A program made the translations under genes and the position numbers. From IMG/VR virus record IMGVR_UViG_3300031576_000026, positions 1 to 64,000 of that record: DNA of 64,000 nucleotides, one strand, 5' to 3'. Below are positions 2,518 through 52,750 of this stretch, in pieces (the stretch's first letter is position 1; each line of letters starts with the position of its first letter). This DNA is from a virus. Below the pieces are notes generated by a model. That model saw only the letters and a program-made list of their open reading frames with translations. It made no database searches and had not been told where the DNA came from.

Positions 2518-3039
2518 TTATTTATAAATACCCCCTCCTCGAACTTCGATTTGAGATTTGTGAACGCCTGTATAATCAAAGTAAGAATTGTTATCGGAGT
2601 ATACACGATAAACAGGAACATAATTATTGAAACCACCGCGATAAGATGTATTAACTAGAGCGACTAGTCGAAACTCCCTAAACTTACGTAAAACGAGAAT
2701 GCCGCCGAGTTCATGTCTTAAAAAATTTTCCTTGGACTGGCGTAGTGTTCCGTCCTTTCGAAAAACGAGACTTGATATATAACTAAGTCCCTTCGCGGTC
2801 TGTTCTGAGGTTATCTTATATCCTCTCCCCTTAAGTGCTCTCTTCTCAAATTCTACAAGCAGTGGATGCTTCGAGGGTAAGGATATGGAAGAGACTGCGT
2901 TTTTATACTCCCAGTTATTAATATATTTGCGAAAGTATATGATTTCATTTTCTGCCCATGGAGTCCGCATGTTTTTAACTCGCCGTTCCCATTTAGTATA
3001 TGTTAGGTGTTGACTTCGGCTTAAAGATAGTGTACTCAT
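2518..3039 (-). CDS. hypothetical early protein
   Basis: 173-aa ORF with AGGAG RBS. Confidence 0.7.
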   Translation of the reverse strand: MSTLSLSRSQHLTYTKWERRVKNMRTPWAENEIIYFRKYINNWEYKNAVSSISLPSKHPLLVEFEKRALKGRGYKITSEQTAKGLSYISSLVFRKDGTLRQSKENFLRHELGGILVLRKFREFRLVALVNTSYRGGFNNYVPVYRVYSDNNSYFDYTGVHKSQIEVRGGGIYK

Positions 3040-3058
3040 CTTAGCTCCTAATTGATGC

Positions 3059-3427
3059 TTATCGTGTAATCCAATATCCAGTCAATGAATCATAAGTATA
3101 AGGCTCACCAGACCGGATTTCCGTCTTAGGTACATTCTGTAGTATTCCAATGTCTTTAGTGTCACCAGTTGAGTAAATAATCTTGGTTCGCCTGAAGTCA
3201 TCTGAATAAAGAATACATTCTTGGTCATAGGAATCAGCTAGTGCCTTAGCCAAGCTCAAATCTTCAAGGTAAGGAACCTCTAAGATGTAGTTATTCTCAC
3301 CTTGACCATTATAGTAGCCAACAACATGCTTGGCTTTGAATCCCCAATCTTGAATTAGTTTTAATTCCTTTTCAGGGGTGTCAATGTTAAGGGCCAATAT
3401 AACAATAGGTGTTTTAATATTTGTCAT
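3059..3427 (-). CDS. putative S-adenosylmethionine lyase (T3 SAMase-like)
   Basis: GYYNGQGENNY...LADSYDQECILY fits the G-x-Y-x-G-x-x-E ... Q-[ED]-x-[IV]-L pattern of phage SAM lyases; 122 aa; early region. Confidence 0.55.
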   Translation of the reverse strand: MTNIKTPIVILALNIDTPEKELKLIQDWGFKAKHVVGYYNGQGENNYILEVPYLEDLSLAKALADSYDQECILYSDDFRRTKIIYSTGDTKDIGILQNVPKTEIRSGEPYTYDSLTGYWITR

Positions 3428-6242: not shown

Positions 6243-6532
6243 GCAGTAAACTTACCGAAATATGTGATTTGTTTATCGAAGGACACACTAAGATGTTATC
6301 GAACAAACAAGCAGGAACACCGAACTGTCTTCAAGTTGGAGCTTTAATATCGTATTATATGGAATATTCTCCCAAACTTGCCTGCGCTGCGAAGATGATG
6401 GAGAGGTTAGCTGGCTTTCTTATAGAAGCGTTAGAATTGGAATGCGATGCCGATTTAGTAAATAAACCGATTTATAATGTCGTAGAGACACACCTAAAAG
6501 AAATTGAAAGGATTTTGAATGAAAAGACTTAA
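6239..6532 (+). CDS. hypothetical protein
   Basis: ORF track; ATGA overlap. Confidence 0.55.
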   Translation: MSSKLTEICDLFIEGHTKMLSNKQAGTPNCLQVGALISYYMEYSPKLACAAKMMERLAGFLIEALELECDADLVNKPIYNVVETHLKEIERILNEKT

Positions 6533-6662
6533 ATATATTATTTGTTGGTTCGGATGGCATGGTCCAACAATATATGAATTTTTTGACAGATGCAGTGTTC
6601 ATGCTCGATGTAAATGGTGTGGATATCGTGGGATGATAGATTCTCAAGGAAATCTTTTTTAA
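6519..6662 (+). CDS. small Zn-ribbon-like protein (47 aa)
   Basis: Manual translation MKRLKYIICWFGWH...CSVHARCKWCGYRGMIDSQGNLF. Confidence 0.6.
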   Translation: MKRLKYIICWFGWHGPTIYEFFDRCSVHARCKWCGYRGMIDSQGNLF

Positions 6663-6678
6663 TGAATAAGGAGAAAGT

Positions 6679-7065
6679 ATGAGTGTAATGAATAGATTAG
6701 GAAATTGTCATAATCAATTTCAAGGTAAATATAAAAGGGTATTAACGGTTTGTTCTGCTGGTCTTCTTCGATCTCCAACGGCAGCTTTAGTTCTCTCTCA
6801 AGAACCATTTAATTTTAATACAAGAGCGGCAGGACTAGAAAAAAATTTCGCCTTAATTGTCGTAGATGATGTTCTTATAGAATGGGCACAAGAAATTGTT
6901 TGTATGACTAAATCTCAAGAAAAATCTTTAAAGGGGATGACAAATAAACCAGTTATTTGTCTTGATATTCAGGACAGCTTTCCCTATAGAGATCCAGAGT
7001 TAACTAAATTAATTGTTGAAAAATATGAAGAAAAAACTAATAATAAAACTATATGCAAAACCTAA
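6679..7065 (+). CDS. low-molecular-weight protein tyrosine phosphatase-like protein
   Basis: CX5R loop VCSAGLLRSPTA; TRAAG; WAQEIVCM; LDIQD. Confidence 0.8.
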   Translation: MSVMNRLGNCHNQFQGKYKRVLTVCSAGLLRSPTAALVLSQEPFNFNTRAAGLEKNFALIVVDDVLIEWAQEIVCMTKSQEKSLKGMTNKPVICLDIQDSFPYRDPELTKLIVEKYEEKTNNKTICKT

Positions 7066-7258
7066 TACAAAAGAAGAAGCCCAAGCTATGATTATAAGAA
7101 TATTGAGACGTCATGGCTGCACATGGGGCAGAATCGGAGAACTTTGTGCTTTAGCATTTAATCTTAAAGAATATGGAGGTCAAATGCTTGGGAAAGAATT
7201 GTGTGATGGAGCTGCTAAATTATTCGATGAAGACCCCAAAAAAGAGCCGTGGAACTAA
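7013..7258 (+). CDS. hypothetical protein, possible HTH
   Basis: ORF track; LRRHGCTWGRIGE. Confidence 0.5.
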   Translation: MLKNMKKKLIIKLYAKPNTKEEAQAMIIRILRRHGCTWGRIGELCALAFNLKEYGGQMLGKELCDGAAKLFDEDPKKEPWN

Positions 7259-7794
7259 TTCTTCCCCATAAAGAATACTACAATGCCCTTATTCCTGGAA
7301 TATTTGCCTTTATTAATGAAGTTGATAAGAAGATTGAGGTTAGGTATAGCCAATGTATTAGTAGCTCAATGGTGAGCATTTTAAGAGAAATTAAGCTGGG
7401 TTCATTAAGACCTAAAGATATTATAAACGATTTTCATGATAATAAACTTCGATTTAGGATTCTTGAAGAAATTCCAAATGATAGGTCTATAGGGAACATT
7501 AAGAAACAATATTGGATTGATGAATATAGAAAACAAGGTTATTCAACTTATAAAATCTTAAAGCAACCTGTTTATAAAATTAGAATTGATATTGAAAATT
7601 ATTTAGTATGTGTAAGTATTGAGAATTTAAACTCAATTAAGACTATAGTTGGGATCTTTGATAAAATGAAAGACGCAAAACAATTCATCAAGCAATATTA
7701 TAACAAAGATAAAATCAATGATATGGGTTCTATAGTTGTTGCTAATAATCCCTTAACAAGGCATCATTTTCTAGAAATTAACAACTTTTTATAG
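7249..7794 (+). CDS. degenerate GIY-YIG-fold-like protein
   Basis: PGIFAFIN...FRILEE...QYWIDEY layout; catalytic residues not canonical. Confidence 0.4.
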   Translation: MELILPHKEYYNALIPGIFAFINEVDKKIEVRYSQCISSSMVSILREIKLGSLRPKDIINDFHDNKLRFRILEEIPNDRSIGNIKKQYWIDEYRKQGYSTYKILKQPVYKIRIDIENYLVCVSIENLNSIKTIVGIFDKMKDAKQFIKQYYNKDKINDMGSIVVANNPLTRHHFLEINNFL

Positions 7795-7812: not shown

Positions 7813-7974
7813 ATGTTGCCAATCATTGAAATTATTGATATGGTATTAATAATGATCCTTGTGATAATAGAATCAGCAACCTATTATAGAACCTTTTTAA
7901 AGAAAAAAAGAACCTATAATAGAAAGCCTAAGTTTATTCCTAAAGTAATAAAAAATAAAGCTTATGATGAATAA
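7813..7974 (+). CDS. small membrane protein (53 aa)
   Basis: Manual translation; N-terminal hydrophobic helix, basic tail; GAGGG RBS. Confidence 0.5.
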   Translation: MLPIIEIIDMVLIMILVIIESATYYRTFLKKKRTYNRKPKFIPKVIKNKAYDE

Positions 7975-8137
7975 AATTATTAAAGTTGATTTTAAAAATA
8001 AGAGAAGAACAGGAATTTTTAATGCAAACAGGCTACTGGCTTGGCCGATTAAAAGTTATATTTTCATATTGACCGTATTACTTTTATCTGCTATAATGCC
8101 TTTTATGATGGAATTGGTATCCAAATGGGTATTTTAG
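7964..8137 (+). CDS. small membrane protein (57 aa)
   Basis: Manual translation MMNKIIKVDFKNKRR...FILTVLLLSAIMPF. Confidence 0.5.
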   Translation: MMNKIIKVDFKNKRRTGIFNANRLLAWPIKSYIFILTVLLLSAIMPFMMELVSKWVF

Positions 8138-8394
8138 ATTTCTTAAATTTAGTTCCTTCAAGAAGAACGGGAAGAAAAGATTTAAATTACGAATTCGACA
8201 TATTACAAAAATTCAAGGATGTTACATTCGGTGCTGTAGATTTTAGACTTAACATAAGAGCGGATAGATTAATGAAAATCTTATCAGTAATTTCTGTAGG
8301 TGAGTGTTATTATGCACGGGGTGTGGATTGGAAATATCAGGAATTCCCAGTTTATAATATGCCACTACCTTTAAAATCAAGGAATAAGAAATAA
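8125..8394 (+). CDS. hypothetical protein
   Basis: ORF track. Confidence 0.5.
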   Translation: MGILDFLNLVPSRRTGRKDLNYEFDILQKFKDVTFGAVDFRLNIRADRLMKILSVISVGECYYARGVDWKYQEFPVYNMPLPLKSRNKK

Positions 8395-8396
8395 TT

Positions 8397-8873
8397 ATGA
8401 ATAAAGAACTAGAAGATAGATTATGCAGAGAGTTTCCGAATTTATACGCGGATATGTACAAAGATCCCATACAGAGTTGTATGGCATTTGGAATAGAAAC
8501 TGGTGATGGTTGGTTTGATCTTATTTATGATCTGTCTTCTAAATTAGAAAAAATAATTGTTGAATATAAAGAAAAATATCCAGATATAGAATATTGGCCT
8601 AAAGCAAGTCAAGTGAAAGAAAAATATTCATCTTTGAGATTTTACATGACCACATCAACAGATGAAATGGAAAGGTTAATAGATGAAGCTGAATCTAAAA
8701 GTTATCATCTTTGCGAGATGTGTGGAAAAGAGGGTCAGTGTAATCTTAATGGCTGGTTGGCAGTACGTTGCAGAGACTGTTGGAACTCTGATGTTGGTTA
8801 CGACGAAACTACTAAATTAAAGAAAGAGCAAAGACTAAAGGATCTAGAAGATGGATTTGGTGAAACAGATTAA
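8397..8873 (+). CDS. conserved phage protein with C-terminal Zn ribbon
   Basis: GDGWFDLI...QVKEKYSSLRFY...CEMCG...CRDC, a recurrent phage family. Confidence 0.75.
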   Translation: MNKELEDRLCREFPNLYADMYKDPIQSCMAFGIETGDGWFDLIYDLSSKLEKIIVEYKEKYPDIEYWPKASQVKEKYSSLRFYMTTSTDEMERLIDEAESKSYHLCEMCGKEGQCNLNGWLAVRCRDCWNSDVGYDETTKLKKEQRLKDLEDGFGETD

Positions 8874-9159
8874 AAATCTTTTTACTTTCGGATGGTTTAG
8901 TAAAAAAAGACCATCGAAAATAACAAAGAAATTTAAAGTTTATAATGATTATGTAGATTTAACTTTTTCAATGAAAGATGGGATGTCTTTTGTTCATAGA
9001 AAAATACCAGAGCATCTTTATCAGCTTCACATTCCAACTGGTCCATGGGTATTCATTTATGATCAAATTTCTACTTATTATCCAGTTTCTGACATAATCA
9101 AAATAAAGGTGAATAGATATAAAGAAGAAACTGAAATGGTGATTGAGGAGTACAAATGA
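8851..9159 (+). CDS. hypothetical protein
   Basis: ORF track; coupled overlaps. Confidence 0.55.
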   Translation: MDLVKQIKNLFTFGWFSKKRPSKITKKFKVYNDYVDLTFSMKDGMSFVHRKIPEHLYQLHIPTGPWVFIYDQISTYYPVSDIIKIKVNRYKEETEMVIEEYK

Positions 9160-9620
9160 AACTAATACTAGCCCTTGTTGTTAGAACTATTATTTTTCTT
9201 AGAAAGTTTTTTATTAAAGGTCATCTAATTCAAGGTGATCCTTCTAGATTATTTACAGATCCCACTATTTTTAGTGATATCGATGGAACATTAGTTATAT
9301 GGCATCAAGAAGATCATCTGGAAGCAATACCATTTAATTGTTATGGAACAGAATATAAACTAGTACCAAATAAAGAAAATATAAAAAAACTTAAAGAATT
9401 TCACAACAAAGGATATACAGTTATCGTATGGAGCGCAGCTGGAAGTGGCTGGTGTCAAGAAGTAGTTAAAAAACTTAAATTGAAAAAATACGTTAAGTAT
9501 TGCGTATCCAAGCCTGAGTATTTTCTCGATGATTTAAAAGCAGAAAAATTCCTTCCTGAAAATAGAAGATTTAATCATGAATATATTAAACAGGAGGATT
9601 CTAAGGTGTTAAAACTATAA
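9156..9620 (+). CDS. HAD-superfamily phosphatase-like protein
   Basis: Motif I DIDGT, motif II WSA, motif III K (SKP), motif IV DD. Confidence 0.75.
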   Translation: MKLILALVVRTIIFLRKFFIKGHLIQGDPSRLFTDPTIFSDIDGTLVIWHQEDHLEAIPFNCYGTEYKLVPNKENIKKLKEFHNKGYTVIVWSAAGSGWCQEVVKKLKLKKYVKYCVSKPEYFLDDLKAEKFLPENRRFNHEYIKQEDSKVLKL

Positions 9621-9621
9621 T

Positions 9622-9892
9622 TTCCCCAAGTCCAAGAGGGCGAAACAATCAACCCTATCGCAGCTCGGGCAACTGCAAACTGATGATCTTGTAGGGTATA
9701 TGATACATCAGCGAAGCATAGGGGGGCGATACCGGCCAGCCAAAGGAATCATGCCCAAAGGCTTAAGGGTCTATTGGACCCAAATGGTATGACATATGCT
9801 GGACAGACAGCGTTTCCCGAGTCACATGCGGGTATTCTGATCAAATAGAAGGTGTGAGGAGTTTGGGAGGTCTGGCTTAAAATCTCCCTTAT
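9622..9892 (+). ncRNA. putative structured non-coding RNA, family unknown
   Basis: GC-rich ORF-free gap with many nested helices, 5'/3' end pairing and a terminator-like last hairpin. Confidence 0.55.
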
Positions 9893-9893
9893 T

Positions 9894-10031
9894 ATGACAA
9901 AATTTATAATATATCCATTTAAATTTATTTTAAAAATACTATCTTATTACATTGAAAATAAAGATAAAAAAAGAAGATTTAAGAAGTCTCGAAAAGCCAA
10001 GATTAAAGTTAAGAGGAACAAAAGTACATAA
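9894..10031 (+). CDS. small Lys/Arg-rich protein (45 aa)
   Basis: Manual translation; no strong RBS. Confidence 0.35.
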   Translation: MTKFIIYPFKFILKILSYYIENKDKKRRFKKSRKAKIKVKRNKST

Positions 10032-10069
10032 AAGCCACAAAAAGTACAACAGAAAGGCAAATCATAAAT

Positions 10070-10279
10070 ATGAACGGGAAGAAAGAGACTAGATTAATAT
10101 CATGTAAGGTTTGTAAGGAAGTAAAAGAAGCATTTCAGGATGGATTCTACCCAAAAGGAATTAACAGGCGTTGGCGAGATTCCGATGGGAGGATGTTTAA
10201 TGGTAAAGTTTGCCCTATTTGTAATGCGGAACGTACGAAATCACACGCACAAAAGAAACGCCTATTAAACACTATGTGA
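10070..10279 (+). CDS. small Zn-finger protein
   Basis: CKVC ... CPIC. Confidence 0.6.
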   Translation: MNGKKETRLISCKVCKEVKEAFQDGFYPKGINRRWRDSDGRMFNGKVCPICNAERTKSHAQKKRLLNTM

Positions 10280-10289
10280 TACTAATAAA

Positions 10290-11189
10290 ATGAAAAAATT
10301 AGATCTAGCATATGGTAATCCAGCTTTTCTTCATCCATATTGGGATGAGAAAACTTTAAAACTACCCCAAATTAAATCTTTTACTCATTCATATACTTAC
10401 GATGGAATTCCAGAATTAAAAGATGCTATAGTCAAATTACACAAACAAGAAACCAACGCATCAACTATTAATAGATATATTGTTGTGGGTAATGGTGCTG
10501 GACAAGTATTATCTTCGGCAATTCATGCCCTGAATTCTCCGGTATTTGCAGCAATACCCCATTTCCAAAGATTCCCATTTTATGCAAAAAATGCAGGATA
10601 TCCGTGGATGGAATGTTATAATCCAGATTTTACACAAATTATCACATGTCCGAATAATCCGGACAATTTCAATGAATATCATGACTATGGCTGTAAAAAA
10701 ATTTTTGATTTAAGTTATAACTGGAGGACGTACACCGATCCTATTTTTTTTGATGAAGATATTATGATTTTTAGTTTGAGTAAATCTCTGGGAATGGCTT
10801 CGGCGCGTATAGGCTGGGCTCTAGTTAGAGATAAAAAAATAGCTGAGAAAATGAGAGACTATATAGAATATAATACAGGGGGAGTATCCATCTATTCACA
10901 AATGGAAGCTGTAGATCATTTATCATCTCAACTCTATGATAATAACAAAATATTTGACTATGGAAGAATTATTCTAAGGAATAGATGGTGCAAAATTTTT
11001 CAAGCCAAGCCAGATTTTATTCCTCTGAATATAAATGGACAATTTTTATGGGGATTGGGGAATCCTCCCCCCAACGTCGAAGTTGTTGAAGGAAAAAAAT
11101 TTGGGGCAAATGATTCCTTTTTTCGTATTAATTTGGGATGTTCAAATAAACATTTTGAAACTCTGTTATGTTATCTTCAGAAGAAATAG
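10290..11189 (+). CDS. PLP-dependent fold-type I enzyme, alliinase/tryptophan aminotransferase (TAA1)-like
   Basis: YIVVGNGAGQ, CPNNPD, DLSYNW, FSLSK(PLP lysine)SLG..SARIGWALVRD. Confidence 0.8.
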   Translation: MKKLDLAYGNPAFLHPYWDEKTLKLPQIKSFTHSYTYDGIPELKDAIVKLHKQETNASTINRYIVVGNGAGQVLSSAIHALNSPVFAAIPHFQRFPFYAKNAGYPWMECYNPDFTQIITCPNNPDNFNEYHDYGCKKIFDLSYNWRTYTDPIFFDEDIMIFSLSKSLGMASARIGWALVRDKKIAEKMRDYIEYNTGGVSIYSQMEAVDHLSSQLYDNNKIFDYGRIILRNRWCKIFQAKPDFIPLNINGQFLWGLGNPPPNVEVVEGKKFGANDSFFRINLGCSNKHFETLLCYLQKK

Positions 11190-11440
11190 ATCATCTTATT
11201 AAAGAAACCATGGATGTTGGAAATCGCGTGAAGACTTCTTATAATCTAGTGATGTCTTTGAATAATAAAGAAAGTCGAGCTACATATACCCAAGATCTTT
11301 TAATTATGATTGAGGCTTATAAGGATTTGTGTCTCATATTAAAAAATGAATTGGATGTGTATATAAAAGAAGAATCTAAAAATAATAAACCCATTAATTT
11401 AATTTATAGGAAAATTTTTCGTTGCTTGAGTATTAATTAG
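11168..11440 (+). CDS. hypothetical protein
   Basis: ORF track. Confidence 0.5.
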   Translation: MLSSEEIDHLIKETMDVGNRVKTSYNLVMSLNNKESRATYTQDLLIMIEAYKDLCLILKNELDVYIKEESKNNKPINLIYRKIFRCLSIN

Positions 11441-11843
11441 TCATTTTGAAGTATGGTATAAAGATTCTTTTACCGCTTTGGGGTGGATATATTTGGCAAT
11501 GAACCCAAGAAGGCGTAAAGCTTTTATCTTCTAAATAAACCCCTAATTTTTCTAATAATTTCAAGTTATCTATACACCAATTCCAAAACTGTCTATCTCT
11601 ATCCCAAACATCACAAGCTGCTGCTAATATGTGCGTACTTTTCCTGGGTTTTCTTCCTGCTGCGCTATCTATTCTAACCTGATCTTCTTCACTACGAACC
11701 CCAGAAGTAATTATTATGGGCTTTCCATAAGCTTTTCTGATCTCATTCATTACTTCATAAAGCTTTTCAAAATTTTTCTTTTTTTCCTCAGTTAGGGGAT
11801 AATCATGAGGATTTAATTCTTTTCGCGTAATAGCCATATTCAA
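11433..11843 (-). CDS. peptidase M15-family endolysin
   Basis: ITSGVRS, SxH-x6-D (STHILAAACD), WVH Zn ligands. Confidence 0.8.
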   Translation of the reverse strand: MNMAITRKELNPHDYPLTEEKKKNFEKLYEVMNEIRKAYGKPIIITSGVRSEEDQVRIDSAAGRKPRKSTHILAAACDVWDRDRQFWNWCIDNLKLLEKLGVYLEDKSFTPSWVHCQIYPPQSGKRIFIPYFKMTN

Positions 11844-11912
11844 TGAAAGTTGTTAAATCCCGAAAATTATTCACAATTTCAATACTTCTTTAATATTTTC
11901 CATATTTTAGAA

Positions 11913-11922
11913 TTAACAACTA
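11913..11922 (+). promoter_or_regulatory. TTAACAACTA motif (candidate late promoter) before the terminase operon
   Basis: Identical 10-mer also at 16205, 23440, 24827, 26791, 34096 and 43121, each at a gene boundary. Confidence 0.65.
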
Positions 11923-12018
11923 TATATGAAAATAGAAGCGGATAGGCCAACTGCTACACAATGTAGCTCTATAATTAACCAGTGGTAATCCAAATCTTTT
12001 CACAACTAGGAGAATAAT

Positions 12019-12309
12019 ATGTCTTCAGCTATTAGATATCTAGCTTTGGGACTCTTTTGTATTACATCATTTAAAGGTCTCTATTATGGCTTTACGTGGA
12101 TTGAAATTCCTTTATTGGCTATCATGGCATGTTTAAGTATGTTTTATGAATACAATTCACAGAATAAAAAGTGGAAAGAACTAAGTGATAAATGTAATTC
12201 CCTTCAAAAAAATCACGGTGATTTGGTACAAAATATAGACCAACTAAAAACACATGTGGCTGGATTAAAGCTAGGAACACAATTACGAAGTTCGAATCTG
12301 GTAAAATAA
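12019..12309 (+). CDS. membrane protein with two TM segments and a coiled coil
   Basis: Hydrophobic N-terminus; GGAG RBS. Confidence 0.65.
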   Translation: MSSAIRYLALGLFCITSFKGLYYGFTWIEIPLLAIMACLSMFYEYNSQNKKWKELSDKCNSLQKNHGDLVQNIDQLKTHVAGLKLGTQLRSSNLVK

Positions 12310-12723
12310 ATGGATAATATTTATAACTTAACAAGTCAATTTAAAGATTTCTCCGAACTTCAGGAATATGCGAATTCACAATATCGATTAATAGTTGATT
12401 TATCAAGAAAAATAAATGATCTAGAAGCCGAAAATAAACATTTAAAGATTCTGTTGGAGGGGGCAGTACCTTTAATAGGTCAAAAACCATCGGAATCTAT
12501 AGTTACTGATTTATCCGATGAAGAGGTGATTTGTAGAACTCAAATTAAGATCTTAAAAGATACCGCACTAGATCGAGAATTTACCAATGATGAGGCTAAA
12601 AAATTTGATATTTTTGTTAAAACCTTATTATCGTTGAAGTCTAAAGAAGACAATTCATCGTCCAAACTCTCTAAAGTGAAGGATTCAGATTTATTAGAAG
12701 TCTTGATTACTAGTAATGAGTAA
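12310..12723 (+). CDS. putative terminase small subunit
   Basis: Directly upstream of and overlapping terL; helical; position-based only. Confidence 0.45.
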   Translation: MDNIYNLTSQFKDFSELQEYANSQYRLIVDLSRKINDLEAENKHLKILLEGAVPLIGQKPSESIVTDLSDEEVICRTQIKILKDTALDREFTNDEAKKFDIFVKTLLSLKSKEDNSSSKLSKVKDSDLLEVLITSNE

Positions 12724-14170
12724 TATGACAAAACAAGAAGCCAAAAATCAACTCTGGAGAAGGGGCATACTTTCTTGGAAATTAGACAAGGCTCAGAAAG
12801 AACTATATAAATTATTTTATGAATCTGATCATAAGGTCCAGACTTGGTTACTGAGTAGAAGAAACGGAAAAACATATTCACTAATCATATTGGCTGCTGA
12901 GATATGTATAAAACATAAGGATAGTATTATAAAATTCGTAGCTCCTACCAAGTTACAGATTAATAATATATTACGTCCATTATTTAAACAGATTTTTGAA
13001 GATTGCCCGGAAGATATAAAACCGGAATTTCGCGCGAAAGACTACATTTATTATTTTCCTAATGGAAGCGAAATCCAATTAGCCGGAACTGATAATCAAC
13101 ATGCCGAGAAATTAAGAGGTGGTGATAGCACAATAGCAATAGTTGATGAGGCAGGAAGCTGTTCTAATTTGGAATATGTGGTGAAAAGTATTTTGCTACC
13201 AACTACTTTGGTCACAAAGGGTAAGGTTATACTAGCTAGCACTCCACCAGAAGAACCAGAACATGATTTTATTAAGTTTATAGAAGATGCGGAAATGAGG
13301 GGTTCTTTAATCAAAAAAACCATAGAAGACAATCCTAGATTGACTAAAGTGGAAGTAGAACAATTCATAATTGAACTTGGTGGTAGAAATAGTGCAGCAT
13401 GTAGACGAGAGCTATTTTGCGAAATAATTAAAGATTCTTCCCTGGCCGTAATTCCAGAATTTTCTCCAGACTTGGAAAAAGAAATCGTTAGGGAATGGCC
13501 CAAACCGCCTTTTTTTGATGGGTATGTATCAATGGATTTGGGATTTAAAGATTTAACTGCTGTCTTATTTGGATATTATGATTTCAGAACGGATAAGGTC
13601 ATATTGGAAGATGAATTAGTTATAGATTTTTCAGATTCTAATAATAATTTACCAAATCTCATCGATAAAATCAAAAATAAAGAAAAAGAACTATGGTTTA
13701 ACATATTAACCAATGAAGTAAAAAAACCATACATGAGGGTTAGTGATATTAACTATATAGTAACTCAAGAAATTGCTAGGGCATCTCAAGGAGAAATTTC
13801 CTTTATTCCAACAAGAAAAGATGATAAAGACGCAGCATTAAATACTTTTCGAATGATGATTGCAAATAAAAAAGTCATTATTAATCCGAAGTGTAAAAAT
13901 ACTATACGTCATTTAAGAAATGTTAGATGGGCTAGTAAACTTAACCATAAAACATTCGGAAGATCCCCAGATAATGGACATTATGATTGTGTAGATGCTG
14001 CTATTTATTTCATTAGATCTATAGCTTATGGTAAAAATCCTTACCCAGCTCATTATAATGTAAATATGAAAGATCTATTTATCCACAATCCAGAAAAGTT
14101 CAATAAAGCAAATAATCAAATAGATATATTTAAGCATGTTTTTAGAAAGGTAAAGAAAATTTATGGCTAA
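12716..14170 (+). CDS. terL: terminase large subunit
   Basis: Walker A SRRNGKT, Walker B IVDEAG, coupling motif ASTP, nuclease MDLG...D and HYDCVDA. Confidence 0.93.
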   Translation: MSNMTKQEAKNQLWRRGILSWKLDKAQKELYKLFYESDHKVQTWLLSRRNGKTYSLIILAAEICIKHKDSIIKFVAPTKLQINNILRPLFKQIFEDCPEDIKPEFRAKDYIYYFPNGSEIQLAGTDNQHAEKLRGGDSTIAIVDEAGSCSNLEYVVKSILLPTTLVTKGKVILASTPPEEPEHDFIKFIEDAEMRGSLIKKTIEDNPRLTKVEVEQFIIELGGRNSAACRRELFCEIIKDSSLAVIPEFSPDLEKEIVREWPKPPFFDGYVSMDLGFKDLTAVLFGYYDFRTDKVILEDELVIDFSDSNNNLPNLIDKIKNKEKELWFNILTNEVKKPYMRVSDINYIVTQEIARASQGEISFIPTRKDDKDAALNTFRMMIANKKVIINPKCKNTIRHLRNVRWASKLNHKTFGRSPDNGHYDCVDAAIYFIRSIAYGKNPYPAHYNVNMKDLFIHNPEKFNKANNQIDIFKHVFRKVKKIYG

Positions 14171-16208
14171 TGAAAATACATCCCAAGATATTCCACTAAA
14201 TAAGTATTTCGCAGCTCAGGAAGCTAATAAAACAGCCAGTGTATTATTAAATAAAGCTGAAACATTTTTTAATGTCCTAAAATCTAATGCTTATATTGAA
14301 AAAATTAATAAGATGTGGCGCGCATATCATGGTGCATACAATCAAGATTTAGGTTATGGTCATGAAGTCAATTTCACAGGAGAGCAAGGAGAACTAGTTT
14401 CTCTGCCAGTTAATCATTTCCGTAATTTGGCTCAACATATGTATAATATTATAACAGCCAATCGTCCAACTATGGAAGCTAGAGCTATAAATACAGATTA
14501 TAAATCTTTGGCTCAAACTTATTTAGCAAATGGAATTCTTGATTACTATATGAGAGAAAAACATTTGGAAGCTGCTTTAAAAAAGGCAGTTGAATACGCT
14601 ATTGTTATGGGATCTGGATTTATACAGCTCTCATGGAATGCGACTTCTGGCGAAGCATATGATTATGATGAGGATACTGGAGAATTTCGTTATGAGGGAG
14701 AAATAGAATTTTCTAATTTATCCCCATTAGATGTGGTTTTTGATGGAACAAAAGAATCATGGAATCATGATTGGCTTTTGGTGCGTTCATTTCAAAATAG
14801 ATTTAATCTAATGGCCAAATACCCAGAACTAGCCGAAAAAATTAAGGGGATTCCACCTAAGACGGATAGTACTATATATAGATTGGCCATTTGGTCTAAT
14901 GATGACACTGATGATATTCCTGTTTATGAATTTTACCACAAAAGAACTGAAGCTATTCCTGATGGTCGTTATATTTTATTTTTAAATGATGATGTTATTT
15001 TATTAGATACTAAATTACCATACAGAGTTTTACCTATATTTAGAATTGCCCCAAGTGATATATTGGGCACTCCTTATGGGTATACACCAATGTTCGATGT
15101 TTACCCCATCCAAGAGAGTATTAACGCTCTATATAGCATGATTATGACAAATCAAAATGCATTTGGTGTACAAAATGTTTACGTTCCACGCGGAGCCGAT
15201 ATTCAAGTAAATTCTCTAGAGGGGGCAATGAATATTATTGAGGGTAATGCCAAACCCGAACCATTACAATTAACCAATACTCCCGCAGAAGTATTTAAAT
15301 TCCTTCAAGAGTTAATTCAAGCTGCTGAAACTATTTCAGGAATTAATTCAGTAGCTAGAGGAAATCCAGAAGCATCATTAAAGAGTGGAGCAGCTTTAGC
15401 TCTTGTGCAAAGTATGGCTCTACAGTTCATATCCGGATTACAGCAAAGTTATATTAAATTAGTAGAAGATGTTGGAACAGCACTTCTTCAAATTCTCAAA
15501 GATTTCTCCACTACACCTAAAGTTATAGCATTAGTAGGTAAAAACAATAGGCCGCTTTTAAAAGAATTTACAGGAGAGGACATTAATGCTATTAATAGAG
15601 TAGTTGTGGATGTCGGAAATCCTTTGAGTCGCACTGTGGCTGGAAGAGTTCAAATGGCAGAACAATTATTACAAATGAAATTACTCAAAAGTCCTCAACA
15701 ATATTTTCAAGTTATTAATACTGGAAGACTGGACGTTACTTTTGAAGGCGATATGAGTGAATTGCTATTAATTAAAGCGGAAAATGAAAGAATGATGGAG
15801 GGAGAAAGAATTCAAGCGATTGCATTAGATCAACATACACTTCATATAAATGAACATAAGGCAGTTTTAGCTGATCCGGATTTAAGAAAGGATGAAGAAT
15901 TAGTTAAAAATACATTAGATCATATACAAGAACATATTACATTACTAAAAACAACAGATCCTGATCTACTTCAAATTATTGGTCAACAACCACTTCAACC
16001 TTCTCCACAACAACCACCAGTACAACCATTAGAAAGAAGTCCAATGGGGGGATTACTGGAAACTGAACAAGGATTAGTTCCGGCGGGAGAACAGATAACA
16101 GGCCCTGGAATTCCGACGGCACAAATGCCTTCTTTACCCAAACCTCCAGCTCCCTTTGAACAACTTCCAATAACCGCTGAAGAATTAGGTCCAACTGGAA
16201 TTACTTAA
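14163..16208 (+). CDS. portal protein
   Basis: 681 aa after terL; ISGINSVARG..SG.A segment typical of P22-like portals; Pro/Gln-rich tail. Confidence 0.85.
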   Translation: MANENTSQDIPLNKYFAAQEANKTASVLLNKAETFFNVLKSNAYIEKINKMWRAYHGAYNQDLGYGHEVNFTGEQGELVSLPVNHFRNLAQHMYNIITANRPTMEARAINTDYKSLAQTYLANGILDYYMREKHLEAALKKAVEYAIVMGSGFIQLSWNATSGEAYDYDEDTGEFRYEGEIEFSNLSPLDVVFDGTKESWNHDWLLVRSFQNRFNLMAKYPELAEKIKGIPPKTDSTIYRLAIWSNDDTDDIPVYEFYHKRTEAIPDGRYILFLNDDVILLDTKLPYRVLPIFRIAPSDILGTPYGYTPMFDVYPIQESINALYSMIMTNQNAFGVQNVYVPRGADIQVNSLEGAMNIIEGNAKPEPLQLTNTPAEVFKFLQELIQAAETISGINSVARGNPEASLKSGAALALVQSMALQFISGLQQSYIKLVEDVGTALLQILKDFSTTPKVIALVGKNNRPLLKEFTGEDINAINRVVVDVGNPLSRTVAGRVQMAEQLLQMKLLKSPQQYFQVINTGRLDVTFEGDMSELLLIKAENERMMEGERIQAIALDQHTLHINEHKAVLADPDLRKDEELVKNTLDHIQEHITLLKTTDPDLLQIIGQQPLQPSPQQPPVQPLERSPMGGLLETEQGLVPAGEQITGPGIPTAQMPSLPKPPAPFEQLPITAEELGPTGIT

Positions 16209-37682: not shown

Positions 37683-40600
37683 ATGCCTTCTTCAATTCTA
37701 ATAAAAGCTGCCGGATTAGACACATCGTCCAATTCTTTAAGCACCCCAGATGGAAGTCTATCTAAAGCTTCCAATGTTATTATTTTCAGAGATAATGTAG
37801 TCGAATCTCGCAGGGGATTCAAAATTTACGGAAATAACTTCGGCACATCTACAGATAGAGCCAAGCAATTAGTCGTATATCGCGATAGAATATTAAGACA
37901 TTATACTAATAAACTACAATTTGATAATGGTGGTGTTTTTACTGATTTTAGTGGAACCTTTAATGAAACTGAAACTGGGTTAAGAATAAAAAGTATACAA
38001 GCCAATGGTAATTTTTATTTCACAACAGATGAGGGAATTAAAAAAATATCAGCCACATCTGGATCTGAATTAACATCAAGTTCTGGGTATATCATTGCTT
38101 CTGGTGGTGTAAAGGCTATTGATTTTCAAGCTAGAGTAAAAACCACTAGTGGTACACAGAGTGCTTTTTTTACACAAGATAGTACAGTGGCTTATAGGCA
38201 TGTTTGGGGAATAATTGATGCCAATTCTAACCTTATATTAGGCTCTCCCAGTCAAAGAGTTGAAGTATTTAATACTCTATTAAATCTAATGCTCCGGGAT
38301 CATATGAGGCTTTTGGGAGCTTTAGATGATATATCTGTTCAATCTGGAAGTATCATAAATGATGCAAATTATATAAGTTCTTTGGGATTATCCAATACGG
38401 CATCTGCTTCTGATTTAAGAAGTAAATTAATAAGTTTAGCTGAGAAATTAGATAAAGAAAGGGGTACATTAGCTGGAACGGCTGATATAGATACAGCAAC
38501 TATTGCGAGTGGGGTTTGCACTATTGATTTCGCTGCGGCATTTTTTCCAAATAGACAATTTGAAGTTGGAGATAAAATATTTTTAAGTGGATTTACTCCA
38601 GCTAGTGGTACTTTGGATGGAGTACAAACTGTTATTTCAGTGGATTTAGGATCGGGTGCTTCCGTCATCAAATTCAATACTACAGCTAGTGGTGCAGTAA
38701 CTTTAAGTAGTGAAAGTATTGAATCTGGTTGGTTTAGATCAATAACTCAACCTTCAATTCCTAGTACAGTTCCCACAGATCAAGAATTAGTTTCACTACA
38801 AACTTATATTAGCAATATCATAATAGAACTACAATCTTCTCGACACTTGAGAAGAATAGCTAAAAATGATGGGTCTGCTACCGCTTCTCCTTTAGAATTA
38901 GATGAAGCCGGATCAAGTATTGCTGCAGCTAATGCTGTTACAATAGCTATTGTTGCTCCGGGTGATGTTGGAAATTTTTTATCCACTGGTGATAAAATAT
39001 TTTTAAGTGGAACCTGGAAAGACTCATTAGCTGTTTCATTTGCTGGAGTTCAAACTATAACCGGAACTACAGCAACAACATTTTCTTTTACGCATCCAGG
39101 GTCTGCATTAGCTATAGGAGCAGTAGATTTAGATACTGATTCTACTACAGATCGTATATTACGTTTCACTTCTGCAACTAAATCTACTTACATCGATCCA
39201 TTAGAAATTACAACAACAACAACTGTTCTATTAGATATTGCCATTCCTCAAGACATAACAACTAGTCATTTTCTTCAAATATATAGAACTGTAGTTAGCT
39301 CTGCTACTGGAGCTGTTATTTTATCAGATTTAAATGCTGGTGATGAAATGCGGCTCGTATATGAAGCATTTCCCACTCAAACGGAAATAGATACTAAGTT
39401 AATGATAGTTGAGGATATTGTACCAGATACACTTCGTGATGGTGGAACTAATCTTTATACTAACTCTATTAGTGGAGAAGGCATTCTACAGGCTAATGAT
39501 ATACCACCTTTCGCTAAAGATATCAATCGTTTTAAAAATGTTTTATTCTATGCTAATACAAGAACAAGACATCGAAGAGATTTAGCACTATTAGGCGTTT
39601 CCACTATGATTGATCTTTTTACTAGTGGAACTACGCCAAAAATTAATATAACGGATGGCTCTAATCATCATACTTATGATTTTGTAACTGGGATTAAAGA
39701 AGTTACATCATTAGCTTGTGGTGATTCTTCTATGTTATCAGGAGCGGGAGCTTCTTCATATTTTTTAATTAATTCAGCAAATAATATTAATAAATATTAC
39801 GTCTGGTATAAAAAAGATAGTTCAACAGATCCAGGAGTGGCTGGTAGAACAGGAATTCTAGTCGATTTAACCGATATTGATGGTAGTGGTACGGCGTCTG
39901 CTTCAGTAATAGCCTCTAGAACGAGAGATAAAATCAATTCATTGGCTTTATTTGATTTCACTGCAACATCCAGTGGTTCTAATGTGACCATTACAAATGT
40001 AGATGTTGGTTATACAGATGATTCTAATATAGGAACACTTCCAGGTTCTTTCACAATAACGACAACTACTCAAGGGAGAGGAGAAAGATCTACACAGGAA
40101 ATAACTAGTATTACCTGTGTAGCGGATGTTGCGGATAGCTTAAATGGTAAATATTTTAATATTAATACCGCATTCAATAGGGATTTATTTTATGTCTTCT
40201 ATAAGACAAGCGCCGCTTTAAGTGATCCAGCTCCAGCTGGAAGAACAGGCATACAAGTTAATATTGCAACAGGGGCTTCTGCAACTGCAGTCGCCACAGC
40301 CACAAAAGATGCTTTAAATGCATTATCTAATAAATTTATTGCTAGTAGTGTCGGAGCTATATTAACCGTAAAAAATTTCGACTTTGGGCCAGCAATTGAT
40401 GCAACCCCTGAAACTAGCGGATTTACTATTTCTATTACTCAACAGGGAGCCTTAGAAGTTTTATTATCTTCTTTAGTATCCATAGCTCAAGCCATAGATG
40501 AAACAGCCAGAAGTCTTGTACGAATAGTAAATAGGAACGAACGTGAAGTATCTTATGGATTTTACTTATCTGGCCCTGCCGATACTCCAGGTAAAATGCT

Positions 40601-42689
40601 TCTAGAAAGAAAAACTCTTAGTTCTACACCTTTCTATCTTTTAGCTAATCATGCCACAACAGGATTTGCCTTTAGCCCAGATTTATCTCCAGAATCAGGT
40701 AAAACTATAACAGCCATCAGTGTTGCTAATCCTACTATGGTAACAATAGCTACTGTCCATGGCTTATTAGATGGTGATCAAGTAGTTATTAGTGGAAGTG
40801 ACTCATTACCGAATATCGATGGCTTATATATAATATCTGAAGTCACACCCACAACTTTTAAAATTCAAGTAAATGTTAGAGTCGCTGGAACTACGGGGGC
40901 AATTAGAAAAGCAACCTTAGCTGAAGTTTCAAATAATGAAATAAAGGTGAATAGAATATACTTTTCTAAATTCCAGCAACCAGAAGCAGTTCCTGTTGTA
41001 AATACTATGGATGTGGGTTCGGAAAATAAAGCAATTCTGCGCATATTTCCGTTAAGAGATAGTTTATTCGTTTTCAAAGAGGATGGGTTATTTAGAATTT
41101 CGGGTGAAATTTCACCTTTTATAACTTCTTTATTTGATAGTTCTTATACTTTAATAGCATCAGATTCGGTTGATGTCTCAAATAATCAAGTATATGGATG
41201 GACAGATCAAGGAATTAGTATGGTTTCCGAAGCAGGAACTAATATTATCTCAAGATCCATTGATGTTGATGTTCTTCCAAAGGCTCTTTTCCCCAATTTT
41301 GAAACAGCTACTTGGGGCGTGGGATATGAATCTGATAATGCTTATATCGTTTGGACTTTAGAAAAATCAACTGATACTGTGGCTAAATTTGGTTTTCGTT
41401 ATAATACTTTAACAAATACTTGGACGACAATAGATAAAAGTAATACATGTGGGGTTGTAAATCTTACGGATGGTAAATTATATCTAGGGGCTGGTGATAT
41501 TAATTTTATCGAACAAGAAAGAAAAGATTTTTTAAGAAGTGATTATGCAGATAGAGAATTCTCTTCTTCATTACTATCCAGTGGACACTATATTTCTGGG
41601 GGAGAAAAAATCCTATTAACAGATGTATCTAATTTTCAAAAAGGTGACGTATTATTCCAGGAGCAATTTTTAACAGTTTTTGAATTTAACTTACTTTTAA
41701 AGAAATTGGATTTGGATAGTTTGGGAGATAGTGATTATTTTAGTCTTTTGCAGGCATCGGGTGGTAGTGACTTGAGGGATAAATTAGCAAATACCGATCC
41801 GACAAAAGGATTGGCTAAAAAGTTAGATGCTGATTCAGTTGTTTTCGATACAGATTATTTCTCTAAAATCGACACAAAGACAGGAATAGTCTCCAGTAAT
41901 ACCGCTACTAATCCAACAGTTATTACAACTGGTGCTCCACATGGGTTAATAAGTGATCGAATTGTTACTATTTCAGGAACGAACGCTGTTCCCTCTATTG
42001 ATGGGACACATGTTGTGACGGTTATTAGTCCCACAACTTTTTCTATTCCAGTTAGCGTTTTGACACCTACATCTGTTGTGGGGGCATTTACTACTATAGA
42101 TAGTGATTTTAGGGATATAAAGGCTTGTTATAATTTCATAGCATCAAAACTTAATGGCGATACGGGTGTTACTTTTAGTAATTATTCTCAGGTTGATACC
42201 GTATCCATTCAAGAAGCAGTGATTACGAATGTGAATAAAAATACCAAAGAAATCACATTAGATGTAAAACTTCCATACATCGTTGGCCCATTAACCATTT
42301 TTAAAGCCATAAAAACAGAGATTATTTATAATCCAAATACAATGGGAGATCCATTAGGATTAAAGCATTTAAGAGAAGCAACCTTAATGTTTGAAGATAG
42401 AACCTTTACTAATGCCACAATTAGCTTTGCCACAGATTTGTTTCCCTCTTTCGTTGATGTCGCTATAAATGGCCTTGGTGGGGGTTTATTTGGTCACCAG
42501 TCGTTTGGTGATAATTTTTTCGGTGGAAGGGGTAACTCAGCACCCTTTCGTACCTATATACCAAGAAATTGCCAAAGATGCCGATTTCTATTAGTAAAAT
42601 TCGTACATATGATAGCCAGAGAGAAATATTCTATTTTAGCACATTCTATTACGGGGGAGATTGGACAAAGTTCAAGAGCTTATCGCTAA
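37683..42689 (+). CDS. tail nozzle/packaged DNA stabilisation protein with multiple inserted domains
   Basis: GL...A.NV...G...RRG-type start, RIYFSK...PEA, LFVFKEDGLFRISG beta-propeller motifs. Confidence 0.7.
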   Translation: MPSSILIKAAGLDTSSNSLSTPDGSLSKASNVIIFRDNVVESRRGFKIYGNNFGTSTDRAKQLVVYRDRILRHYTNKLQFDNGGVFTDFSGTFNETETGLRIKSIQANGNFYFTTDEGIKKISATSGSELTSSSGYIIASGGVKAIDFQARVKTTSGTQSAFFTQDSTVAYRHVWGIIDANSNLILGSPSQRVEVFNTLLNLMLRDHMRLLGALDDISVQSGSIINDANYISSLGLSNTASASDLRSKLISLAEKLDKERGTLAGTADIDTATIASGVCTIDFAAAFFPNRQFEVGDKIFLSGFTPASGTLDGVQTVISVDLGSGASVIKFNTTASGAVTLSSESIESGWFRSITQPSIPSTVPTDQELVSLQTYISNIIIELQSSRHLRRIAKNDGSATASPLELDEAGSSIAAANAVTIAIVAPGDVGNFLSTGDKIFLSGTWKDSLAVSFAGVQTITGTTATTFSFTHPGSALAIGAVDLDTDSTTDRILRFTSATKSTYIDPLEITTTTTVLLDIAIPQDITTSHFLQIYRTVVSSATGAVILSDLNAGDEMRLVYEAFPTQTEIDTKLMIVEDIVPDTLRDGGTNLYTNSISGEGILQANDIPPFAKDINRFKNVLFYANTRTRHRRDLALLGVSTMIDLFTSGTTPKINITDGSNHHTYDFVTGIKEVTSLACGDSSMLSGAGASSYFLINSANNINKYYVWYKKDSSTDPGVAGRTGILVDLTDIDGSGTASASVIASRTRDKINSLALFDFTATSSGSNVTITNVDVGYTDDSNIGTLPGSFTITTTTQGRGERSTQEITSITCVADVADSLNGKYFNINTAFNRDLFYVFYKTSAALSDPAPAGRTGIQVNIATGASATAVATATKDALNALSNKFIASSVGAILTVKNFDFGPAIDATPETSGFTISITQQGALEVLLSSLVSIAQAIDETARSLVRIVNRNEREVSYGFYLSGPADTPGKMLLERKTLSSTPFYLLANHATTGFAFSPDLSPESGKTITAISVANPTMVTIATVHGLLDGDQVVISGSDSLPNIDGLYIISEVTPTTFKIQVNVRVAGTTGAIRKATLAEVSNNEIKVNRIYFSKFQQPEAVPVVNTMDVGSENKAILRIFPLRDSLFVFKEDGLFRISGEISPFITSLFDSSYTLIASDSVDVSNNQVYGWTDQGISMVSEAGTNIISRSIDVDVLPKALFPNFETATWGVGYESDNAYIVWTLEKSTDTVAKFGFRYNTLTNTWTTIDKSNTCGVVNLTDGKLYLGAGDINFIEQERKDFLRSDYADREFSSSLLSSGHYISGGEKILLTDVSNFQKGDVLFQEQFLTVFEFNLLLKKLDLDSLGDSDYFSLLQASGGSDLRDKLANTDPTKGLAKKLDADSVVFDTDYFSKIDTKTGIVSSNTATNPTVITTGAPHGLISDRIVTISGTNAVPSIDGTHVVTVISPTTFSIPVSVLTPTSVVGAFTTIDSDFRDIKACYNFIASKLNGDTGVTFSNYSQVDTVSIQEAVITNVNKNTKEITLDVKLPYIVGPLTIFKAIKTEIIYNPNTMGDPLGLKHLREATLMFEDRTFTNATISFATDLFPSFVDVAINGLGGGLFGHQSFGDNFFGGRGNSAPFRTYIPRNCQRCRFLLVKFVHMIAREKYSILAHSITGEIGQSSRAYR

Positions 42690-52110: not shown

Positions 52111-52458
52111 TCATACTTCTCGATTAATAGATCTATCTTCACTAAACCCATCCGGATATCTTTTGCGAAGTTTTTCTACATTAGCTTTCTTAATGTCATC
52201 CTCCTCAAATCCAAACATTTCGGAAAGAACTTCAAGATACCAGTAGCAATCTCCCATTTCACCCATCAATTGTTCTTTCATTTTATCATTAACATCATGG
52301 CCGTGAAACATAATTTTTTTAATCACGTTTGCCAGTTCCCCTGCTTCGCCTGTTAATCCTAGAGTTGCGTTTACTACTATTTCGTCTGGGTTTAGTTTTT
52401 GATTTAGAGTTCTTAGAACTTCGTCTCGGTAATTCATCATGTCCTTTCCATAGGTCAT
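52111..52458 (-). CDS. MazG-like nucleoside triphosphate pyrophosphohydrolase
   Basis: GLTGEAGE...KK..FHGH...EMGD..WY...N.EKL.KRYPDGF. Confidence 0.85.
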   Translation of the reverse strand: MTYGKDMMNYRDEVLRTLNQKLNPDEIVVNATLGLTGEAGELANVIKKIMFHGHDVNDKMKEQLMGEMGDCYWYLEVLSEMFGFEEDDIKKANVEKLRKRYPDGFSEDRSINREV

Positions 52459-52750
52459 CTTTCCCTATATTATTTTTTTCAAACTCCAGTAAAAAAAGCA
52501 AATTACATGCCGCATGCGCTAAGTGTGTTAAACCAGATTCCTTATCTATTCTGGTCATCCCACTAGAATTATATTTATAGAGGTGCCTAAATGTTGCATC
52601 TAAAATGCGACTCCAATCAAATCCTTCTCTCCAATTTTGCGCTGTATATTTACTTTCACCGTAGGTTAGAACTTCGGCTACTAATAATAATGCATCAGAA
52701 GGTAGAAGAGAACATCTGGGTTTTCCCTTATCAAACTTTACCCCACCCAT
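52319..52750 (-). CDS. dATP/dGTP diphosphohydrolase-like (DUF5664) protein
   Basis: KFDKGK....LLP...V..VL.YG..KY...NW..G......A..RH...D.ESGL.HLAHA. Confidence 0.8.
   Translation of the reverse strand: MGGVKFDKGKPRCSLLPSDALLLVAEVLTYGESKYTAQNWREGFDWSRILDATFRHLYKYNSSGMTRIDKESGLTHLAHAACNLLFLLEFEKNNIGKDDLWKGHDELPRRSSKNSKSKTKPRRNSSKRNSRINRRSRGTGKRD

Follow-up and report, generated by a model that had tools for sequence, protein, structure and literature searches.

The window analysed here is the first 64 kb (64,000 nucleotides) of the 80,291-bp IMG/VR virus record IMGVR_UViG_3300031576_000026, a cave-metagenome genome rated 92% complete. The gene under study is an uninterrupted open reading frame (ORF) of 299 amino acids (aa), embedded in a block of co-directional genes (Table 1). 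It encodes a phage homologue of the plant tryptophan aminotransferase TAA1 and of alliinase, enzymes that depend on pyridoxal phosphate (PLP). Profile, structural and residue evidence agree in placing the protein much closer to TAA1 and alliinase than to generic aminotransferases of the HisC or AspC type, as an earlier note made from the DNA letters alone had proposed.

Family assignment by profile and structure

In Pfam, the protein matches Alliinase_C (PF04864) with an E-value of 4.1e-41 (141.5 bits, cut-off 22), versus 2.3e-13 (50.5 bits) for Aminotran_1_2 (PF00155), and PF04864 is found in all 43 aligned relatives. The EGF-like alliinase domain PF04863 gives no Pfam match in the window protein, whereas it does match plant members of the family and a metagenomic sequence, P0228. 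A phmmer search of the PDB places Arabidopsis TAA1 first (3bwn, E=5.6e-32, query residues 39-238 on TAA1 residues 69-296), followed by garlic alliinase (2hor/1lk9, 1e-22) and then by a bacterial aspartate aminotransferase (2.7e-5). Similarity of this strength is well above what chance would give. The search reproduces the collinear alignment with TAA1 that the earlier note had described, and the peptides quoted there (PELKDAIVKLH...NASTINRYIVVGNGAGQ, CPNNPD, DLSYNWRTYT, DIMIFSLSKSLGMASARIGWALVRDKK... and FDYGRIILRNRW) are all present in the 299-aa ORF. Among the models of NCBIfam, a collection made for annotating prokaryotes, the best match is GntC at 48 bits (cut-off 415), hisC (TIGR01141) reaches 25 bits (cut-off 277), and no family comes near its cut-off; PHROGs yields a weak N-terminal match only, to phrog_5879, a family of unassigned function. 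The competing assignment, an ordinary enzyme of the HisC, AspC or CobD type, is refuted by the Pfam and NCBIfam scores and by the tree described below, in which the protein is placed in the Alliinase_C family and not among bacterial aminotransferases.

Comparison of folds leads to the same family. The AlphaFold2 model, built with the 43 relatives, has a predicted local distance difference test score (pLDDT) of 94.4 and a predicted template modelling score (pTM) of 0.92. The first 13 Foldseek ranks are all occupied by TAA1 or alliinase chains (3bwn, 3bwo or 1lk9), the best E-values being 3e-28 for TAA1 (template modelling score over the query, TMq, 0.88) and 9e-26 for alliinase (TMq 0.90), with TMq ranging from 0.85 to 0.90 over these chains. 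Other class-I aminotransferases start at about 7e-17, around 11 orders of magnitude weaker. A structural search of the ESM Atlas retrieves Alliinase_C clusters from Streptophyta at a TM-score of 0.94.

Catalytic residues and predicted dimer

The positions expected to bind the cofactor and the substrate are occupied throughout the family (Table 1). N123, D140, Y143, K165, R173 and R279 are invariant in the 43 relatives, conserved in 99-100% of 150 phage sequences and also present in plants; the TAA1 residue that corresponds to K165, K217, is the PLP lysine of that enzyme (PMC6997161). Six further residues are family-specific (W18, H51, N56, W145, W176 and R232). All of them occur in the window protein, in 83-100% of the 150 phage sequences, in 100% of the plant sequences and also in algal sequences, and most of them differ in a basal viral aminotransferase group; W145, for instance, is common to plant TAA enzymes and alliinases and is missing from that group.

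With PLP included, the protein is predicted to form a homodimer: the interface score ipSAE is 0.86, whereas the highest-scoring of three controls gives 0.00; contacts agree fully (100%) between the three runs, and the partner chain has a pLDDT of at least 91. In the calibration of this tool, 20 of 30 known homodimers and 1 of 23 monomers passed at the same level. The predicted interface (residues 8-18, 31-36, 68-75, 164-173 and 194-206) is the classical one of fold-type I enzymes, and the prediction may lean in part on the dimers already solved for TAA1 and alliinase. Relative to TAA1 (391 aa), the protein is shortened by about 30 residues at the N-terminus and about 34 at the C-terminus, and several loops are absent. 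At about 300 aa, the enzyme is unusually small for fold type I and its model is confident, which makes it a convenient minimal scaffold for enzymology.

Table 1. Positions of the genes and residues discussed, in the window unless another record is named.
Feature	Position	Strand	Remarks
Alliinase_C gene, complete 299-aa ORF; compact fold-type I PLP enzyme of the TAA1/alliinase family	10290..11189	+	ATG start at 10290; stop ends at 11189
G9-N10-P11	10314..10322	+	G9 aligned to alliinase Gly64 (in class I, backbone contact to substrate carboxylate); G9 in 96% of the phage family, 100% of plants
Tyr35	10392..10394	+	Aligned to alliinase Tyr92; in 98% of phage members and all eukaryotic members; in predicted dimer interface
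Gly71	10500-10502	+	Aligned to TAA1 T101, a PLP-pocket threonine; position held by Thr or Ser in 88% of the phage sequences and in most plant enzymes
P121-N-N-P-D125 motif	10650..10664	+	N123 invariant, expected to bind PLP O3'
D140-L-S-Y143-N-W145-R-T-Y148	10707..10733	+	D140 expected PLP N1 ligand; Y143 expected O3' ligand
Lys165, Schiff-base lysine	10782..10784	+	Equivalent to TAA1 K217 and alliinase K251; invariant
R173-I-G-W176	10806..10817	+	R173 expected PLP-phosphate arginine; W176 family-specific
Arg279	11124..11126	+	Invariant; aligned to arginine of alliinase 'yvRlsl'; by class-I position binds the amino-acid alpha-carboxylate
Zinc-ribbon ORF (CxxC...CPxC), 69 aa	10070..10279	+	Ends 10 nt before the Alliinase_C gene
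90-aa ORF	11168..11440	+	Overlaps 3' end of the Alliinase_C gene by 22 nt; kept only in the closest relative, L002
TerL gene	12716-14170		
Portal gene	14163-16208		
Zinc-ribbon homologue in L004	3055-3276		Homologue of window 10070-10279
Zinc-ribbon homologue in L052	6833-7099		Homologue of window 10070-10279
L037 Alliinase_C gene, 427 aa	9641-10924	+	Directly downstream of the major capsid gene
Other L037 features listed with its Alliinase_C gene	7839-9587, 6359-7480, 2545-3387		

Genomic setting, distribution and evolution of the family

The Alliinase_C gene lies 1.5 kb upstream of TerL, and an M15-type peptidase (endolysin-like, minus strand) stands between the two. The overlapping 90-aa ORF has no family match. 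The stretch is present in one sequencing run only, probably the source run, and no RNA run is listed. In the independent Logan assembly of the source run, a 12.2-kb contig spans positions 9284-14500 with zero differences and keeps the gene contiguous with TerL. In addition, the local order of zinc-ribbon ORF, Alliinase_C gene, small ORF, M15 peptidase, TerL and portal recurs in L002 and L052, phages from other samples. Because the independent contig is identical and this order is kept elsewhere, the gene is not an assembly chimera, a possibility that the earlier note had raised. Promoter and terminator scans performed no better than on shuffled sequence, and a tRNA search found none.

The remaining genome encodes ThyX, a ribonucleotide reductase, a RecA-like protein, a PD-(D/E)XK nuclease, a DnaB-like helicase, an RNA ligase, a dCMP deaminase, two proteases and a fusion of a family-B DNA polymerase with a uracil-DNA glycosylase (PolB-UDG). 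Since its TerL is at best 31% identical to that of any GenBank phage, the virus belongs to an uncultured lineage of tailed phages. Several other genes of this genome deserve mention. The 922-aa family-B polymerase (57868-60636, minus strand) carries the fused domain of the uracil-DNA-glycosylase superfamily at its C-terminus (residues 749-910), and the 370-aa RNA ligase (PF09414 plus a PHA02142 OB-fold; 56403-57515, minus strand) belongs to the replication module. A 143-aa ORF (52319-52750, minus strand) contains the N-terminal domain of a dATP/dGTP diphosphohydrolase (PF18909, 4e-30), which is MazZ-like and known from Z-genome phages, and a 122-aa protein (3059-3427, minus strand) belongs to the S-adenosylmethionine lyase family (PF23780, 1e-10) and is likely an anti-restriction or host-takeover gene. 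A 1668-aa ORF of the structural region (37683-42689, plus strand) has no Pfam match at the curated cut-off; it is kept by four of the nine carrier genomes and probably encodes a protein of the tail or fibres. At the genome end (78319-79966), a subtilase (Peptidase_S8) adjoins a trypsin-like serine protease (L057:14319-15056 and L057:15244-15966, both on the minus strand), and the subtilase family is common to six of the nine otherwise dissimilar carrier phages.

Across phages, the Alliinase_C gene is found in at least five unrelated backbones. In the window-like phages of about 80 kb, it stands beside the M15 peptidase and the terminase; in a second backbone, ribonucleotide reductase and a PD-(D/E)XK nuclease flank it; in phages of 120-160 kb, it lies between a GroEL-like chaperonin and SbcC/SbcD-like genes; and in a group of about 100-170 kb, its neighbours have no assigned function. 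In other backbones, metallopeptidase-like genes adjoin it. The immediate neighbours share no detectable similarity when compared across groups, nor do the small upstream ORFs (clusters 13, 22, 59, 35 and 77) among themselves. When nine near-complete carrier genomes were reassembled and their ORFs clustered by BLASTP, only one family, that of the Alliinase_C gene, was common to all nine; next in breadth (six of nine each) were the M15 peptidase, ribonucleotide reductase, the RecA-like protein, an AAA ATPase, dUTPase and the subtilase. Recurrent neighbours are genes of replication, nucleotide metabolism or lysis. The zinc-ribbon homologue (about 70 aa) occurs beside or near the gene, on either side, in all window-like phages and is missing from the other phage lineages; the two genes may be functionally linked. 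The spread of the Alliinase_C gene over lineages that have almost no other genes in common implies a portable, selectable function.

The family consists of hundreds of diverse relatives of about 300 aa, almost exclusively in uncultured viral contigs and practically absent from prokaryotic genomes. When 5.8 billion proteins were searched by word index, the result was about 80 relatives of around 300 aa with 30-52% identity, many on contigs of 60-90 kb; plant TAR proteins ranked next, and the only named bacterial protein came from a 1.2-kb fragment of a metagenome-assembled genome (MAG). An exhaustive hidden Markov model (HMM) search of 1.84 billion cluster representatives yielded 1320 clusters with E-values up to 1e-10, of which 531 have E-values up to 1e-30; most of the 150 best are 290-360 aa long, and Lupinus TAR2, a lycophyte and a chlorophyte sequence (1e-55 to 1e-59) stand directly behind the metagenomic ones. 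An alignment-based scan found at least 50 loci in IMG/VR, while a single-protein scan of viral contigs gave no match. The neighbouring ESM Atlas clusters (53, 57 and 239 members) are 83-99% Viruses, with Uroviricota the commonest. A tblastn search with the window protein and two divergent members gave no match in 50,697 GenBank phage records. Over 185,579 prokaryotic species genomes, one narrow peptide pattern matched 27 stretches, of which one was confirmed, a scan that by its single narrow pattern does not prove absence from bacteria. The confirmed match is itself a phage contig, syntenic with the window and binned in a Flavobacteriaceae MAG. In 401 genomes of the phylum to which this MAG belongs, profile searching retrieved only this phage contig and one generic aminotransferase. 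The host is likely bacterial, and the Flavobacteriaceae bin, which is consistent with the GC content of 33-34%, gives a weak hint at which one. Enzymes called 'alliinases' for their activity have reportedly been purified from the bacteria Ensifer and Cupriavidus.

A second, remoter group of phage aminotransferases was also observed in L044, L046, L047, L048, L049 and L050. These proteins match Alliinase_C weakly (near 10001-10900 in L044 and L046-L049, and at 1638-2246 in L050), lack W145, W176 and N56, and branch between the Alliinase_C family proper and bacterial aminotransferases. In L044 and L047, the gene adjoins a family-A DNA polymerase.

Phylogenies were computed with FastTree (196 sequences) and with IQ-TREE (LG+C20 PMSF, 63 sequences). 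Both recover a eukaryotic clade (support 100/99) that unites chlorophytes, Euglena and the TAA and alliinase subclades of land plants. Closest to this clade (98/96) stand P0228, the metagenomic sequence with the EGF_alliinase domain, and a pair that includes L037, a giant-virus contig in IMG/VR. L037 encodes the major capsid protein of nucleocytoplasmic large DNA viruses (NCLDV) and, in the vicinity of its Alliinase_C gene, VLTF3 and an A32-like ATPase. The window protein is placed among phage lineages, outside the eukaryotic clade and its NCLDV and P0228 sisters. Recent capture from plants is excluded, because the phage sequences are not nested inside eukaryotes. When the trees are rooted on bacterial aminotransferases, the clade of eukaryotes and NCLDV forms one of about 15 poorly resolved deep lineages, the rest being phage or metagenomic, and this rooting is limited by the very long branch of the outgroup L055, which shifted in the IQ-TREE tree. 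An approximately unbiased (AU) test does not reject a phage core that is a single clade sister to eukaryotes (delta lnL 6.8, p=0.40). Since the backbone is poorly resolved and the rooting uncertain, no claim is made on the direction of transfer. The suggestion of the earlier note that the gene is a clue to viral transfer of this family is plausible and gains weight from the giant-virus copy sister to the eukaryotic clade.

Tentatively, and with more doubt than conviction, the phage enzymes may be the closest extant non-eukaryotic relatives of the plant proteins, and eukaryotic TAA and alliinase may have arisen inside a virus-borne radiation, via a phage or its bacterial host and possibly through giant-virus go-betweens, rather than from any sampled cellular aminotransferase lineage. 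On this reading, that radiation would also be the source of the enzyme that opens the main auxin pathway. The debate over a horizontal or vertical origin of TAA relied on prokaryotic homologues at E=2e-8 and 9e-7, with 25% identity to TAA1 (PMC4754409). The viral family, diverse and 30-35% identical to plant enzymes (E of about 1e-30 to 1e-37), provides a far closer comparison set for rooting the plant TAA/alliinase tree, together with a concrete hypothesis of viral transfer. Reviews describe the family as centred on plants and algae and its ancestral function as not known (PMC5611494, PMC10015382, PMC9309667). A literature search for phage or viral alliinase or TAA, PF04864, K16903 and lists of auxiliary metabolic genes found no phage or giant-virus member reported. 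A new, compact, mostly virus-borne and previously unreported branch of a known enzyme family is well supported, and for phage biology it represents an unreported auxiliary PLP enzyme.

Possible function and comparison with known systems

With roughly even confidence, we regard the protein as a homodimeric PLP enzyme of free amino acids, most likely a transaminase that would form a 2-oxo acid. A free L-alpha-amino acid is the suggested substrate because the carboxylate-binding arginine is invariant. The lean towards transamination arises because TAA1 scores above alliinase and because positions 8, 148 and 252, which discriminate plant TAA enzymes from the alliinase clade, carry the TAA-type residue in the phage family. 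The gene would act as a self-sufficient auxiliary gene in a co-directional block that directly precedes the lysis and packaging genes of a tailed phage of about 80 kb. Arg279 and the backbone of Gly9 would hold the carboxylate of the substrate, its amino group would form an aldimine with the PLP on Lys165, and the amino acid would most probably be transaminated with a 2-oxo acid acceptor, a type of reaction that TAA1 carries out on aromatic and other amino acids with pyruvate. In this way, the host pool of amino acids and 2-oxo acids would be re-routed during infection. What the results show is the family, the fold, the intact catalytic residues, the predicted dimer, the wide and nearly all-viral distribution and the lack of a conserved partner gene; a transaminase rather than a lyase activity, the choice of substrate and the gain for the phage are the parts that we infer. 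No partner is conserved across lineages, and no modification or YUCCA partner was found, so the protein appears to be a stand-alone auxiliary enzyme that acts on a host metabolite. Of the functional proposals of the earlier note, the auxiliary metabolic gene fits best, given this isolated position, and base hypermodification gains no backing from the gene content given below.

Several points weigh against a transaminase. Reaction type within the Alliinase_C family is not reliably readable from sequence, and the TAA-type residues at the three positions are weak evidence because the phage clade branches outside both plant subclades. The genomic context offers no metabolic hint. The TAA1 variant T101A is active only with ample added PLP (PMC6997161), and Gly71 at this site suggests that cofactor affinity may be lower here. 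Transamination would rank first and a C-S (beta-)lyase second, with counter-defence, nucleic-acid modification and auxin-precursor synthesis following in that order, each of them improbable.

An alliinase-like C-S lyase, which we consider unlikely although it is the strongest rival, would split cystine, cystathionine, S-substituted cysteines or the sulfoxides of these cysteines into pyruvate, ammonia and reactive sulfur species, and would thereby supply the phage with carbon and nitrogen or reshape host sulfur metabolism. Membership of the same Pfam family as garlic alliinase (1e-22, TMq 0.90) and the alignment of Gly9 and Tyr35 with alliinase Gly64 and Tyr92 agree with it, as does the fact that the ancestral activity of the family is not established and that no function has been described for TAR3/4 and the algal members (PMC10015382, PMC9309667). 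However, TAA1 outscores alliinase, residues 8, 148 and 252 are of the TAA type and not of the alliinase or algal type, the EGF-like domain is missing, and no sulfur-metabolism genes were seen nearby. An enzyme of counter-defence or host takeover, destroying or making an amino-acid-derived signal, toxin or defence metabolite, is improbable. Its patchy, horizontally spread occurrence in variable early or middle regions of unrelated phages would suit such a role, and the S-adenosylmethionine lyase family gene, also directed at a small molecule, is present in the same genome; on the other hand, no known defence system is associated with the gene, in an analysis in which PADLOC was not searched.

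PLP enzymes take part in some phage pathways of thymidine hypermodification. A role in DNA or tRNA hypermodification, in which the enzyme would act on an amino-acid moiety attached to a base, is nevertheless slightly less probable than counter-defence: several lineages do carry the gene among replication and nucleotide-metabolism genes, and trimming of the small domain could make the active site more open, but the 80-kb genome encodes no ThyA-like hydroxymethylase, TGT/DpdA or PurZ (PF00709) and has ThyX, no partner gene is kept across lineages, and the alpha-carboxylate arginine is invariant, as in enzymes of free amino acids. True auxin-precursor synthesis by a tryptophan aminotransferase is very improbable. 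Although TAA1 is the best solved match and automatic annotation at the Joint Genome Institute (JGI) gives some relatives the name L-tryptophan--pyruvate aminotransferase, the tree sets the protein apart from the eukaryotic TAA clade, no YUCCA-like flavin-containing monooxygenase occurs in the 35 carrier virus records (nine with a completeness of at least 90%), the DNA derives from a cave metagenome and the host is likely bacterial, and TAA1 itself is promiscuous (PMC9309667). No result here shows tryptophan specificity or auxin production. The remaining alternative, that we are dealing with a host contaminant, a chimeric assembly or an ordinary bacterial aminotransferase of the HisC/AspC/CobD type, is scarcely credible. 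It could appeal to the weak Aminotran_1_2 match and to low-scoring matches of the Alliinase_C model to generic aminotransferases in 5 of 14 control genomes, but is refuted by the Pfam and NCBIfam scores, the Logan contig that includes TerL, the synteny with other phages and the predominance of Viruses in the ESM Atlas clusters.

Among known systems, the prokaryotic class-I aminotransferases (HisC, AspC, CobD; PF00155) share with the phage enzyme the fold type I, the generic PLP-binding residues and, as far as predicted, the dimeric architecture, and differ from it in that the best bacterial PDB match and the Foldseek scores fall far behind those of TAA1. The Alliinase_C proteins of NCLDV and algae (L037; chlorophytes such as P0233) are members of its family, the NCLDV copy being 35% identical over 223 aa; unlike the phage gene, however, that copy encodes 427 aa, has an NCLDV major capsid gene as its neighbour and is placed by the tree with the eukaryotic clade and not with the phage lineages. 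Garlic and onion alliinase (EC 4.4.1.4; 1LK9, 2HOR) and plant TAR3/TAR4 have the same catalytic domain, with Lys165 equivalent to Lys251, whereas the phage protein is without PF04863 and differs from the alliinase-clade types at residues 8, 148 and 252. In comparison with Arabidopsis TAA1/TAR1-2 (L-tryptophan:pyruvate aminotransferase, 3BWN/3BWO), the phage protein is shorter (299 versus 391 aa), has Gly71 at the T101 site, stands outside the eukaryotic clade and comes with no YUCCA partner found. It nevertheless resembles these enzymes in many respects: plant TAR2 is 32% identical over about 290 aa (BLASTP 4e-37), the cofactor lysine, the Asn, Asp, Tyr and Arg ligands, the carboxylate arginine and the family-specific Trp, His, Asn and Arg residues occur in both, neither carries the EGF-like domain, and the phage protein, too, is predicted to be a dimer.

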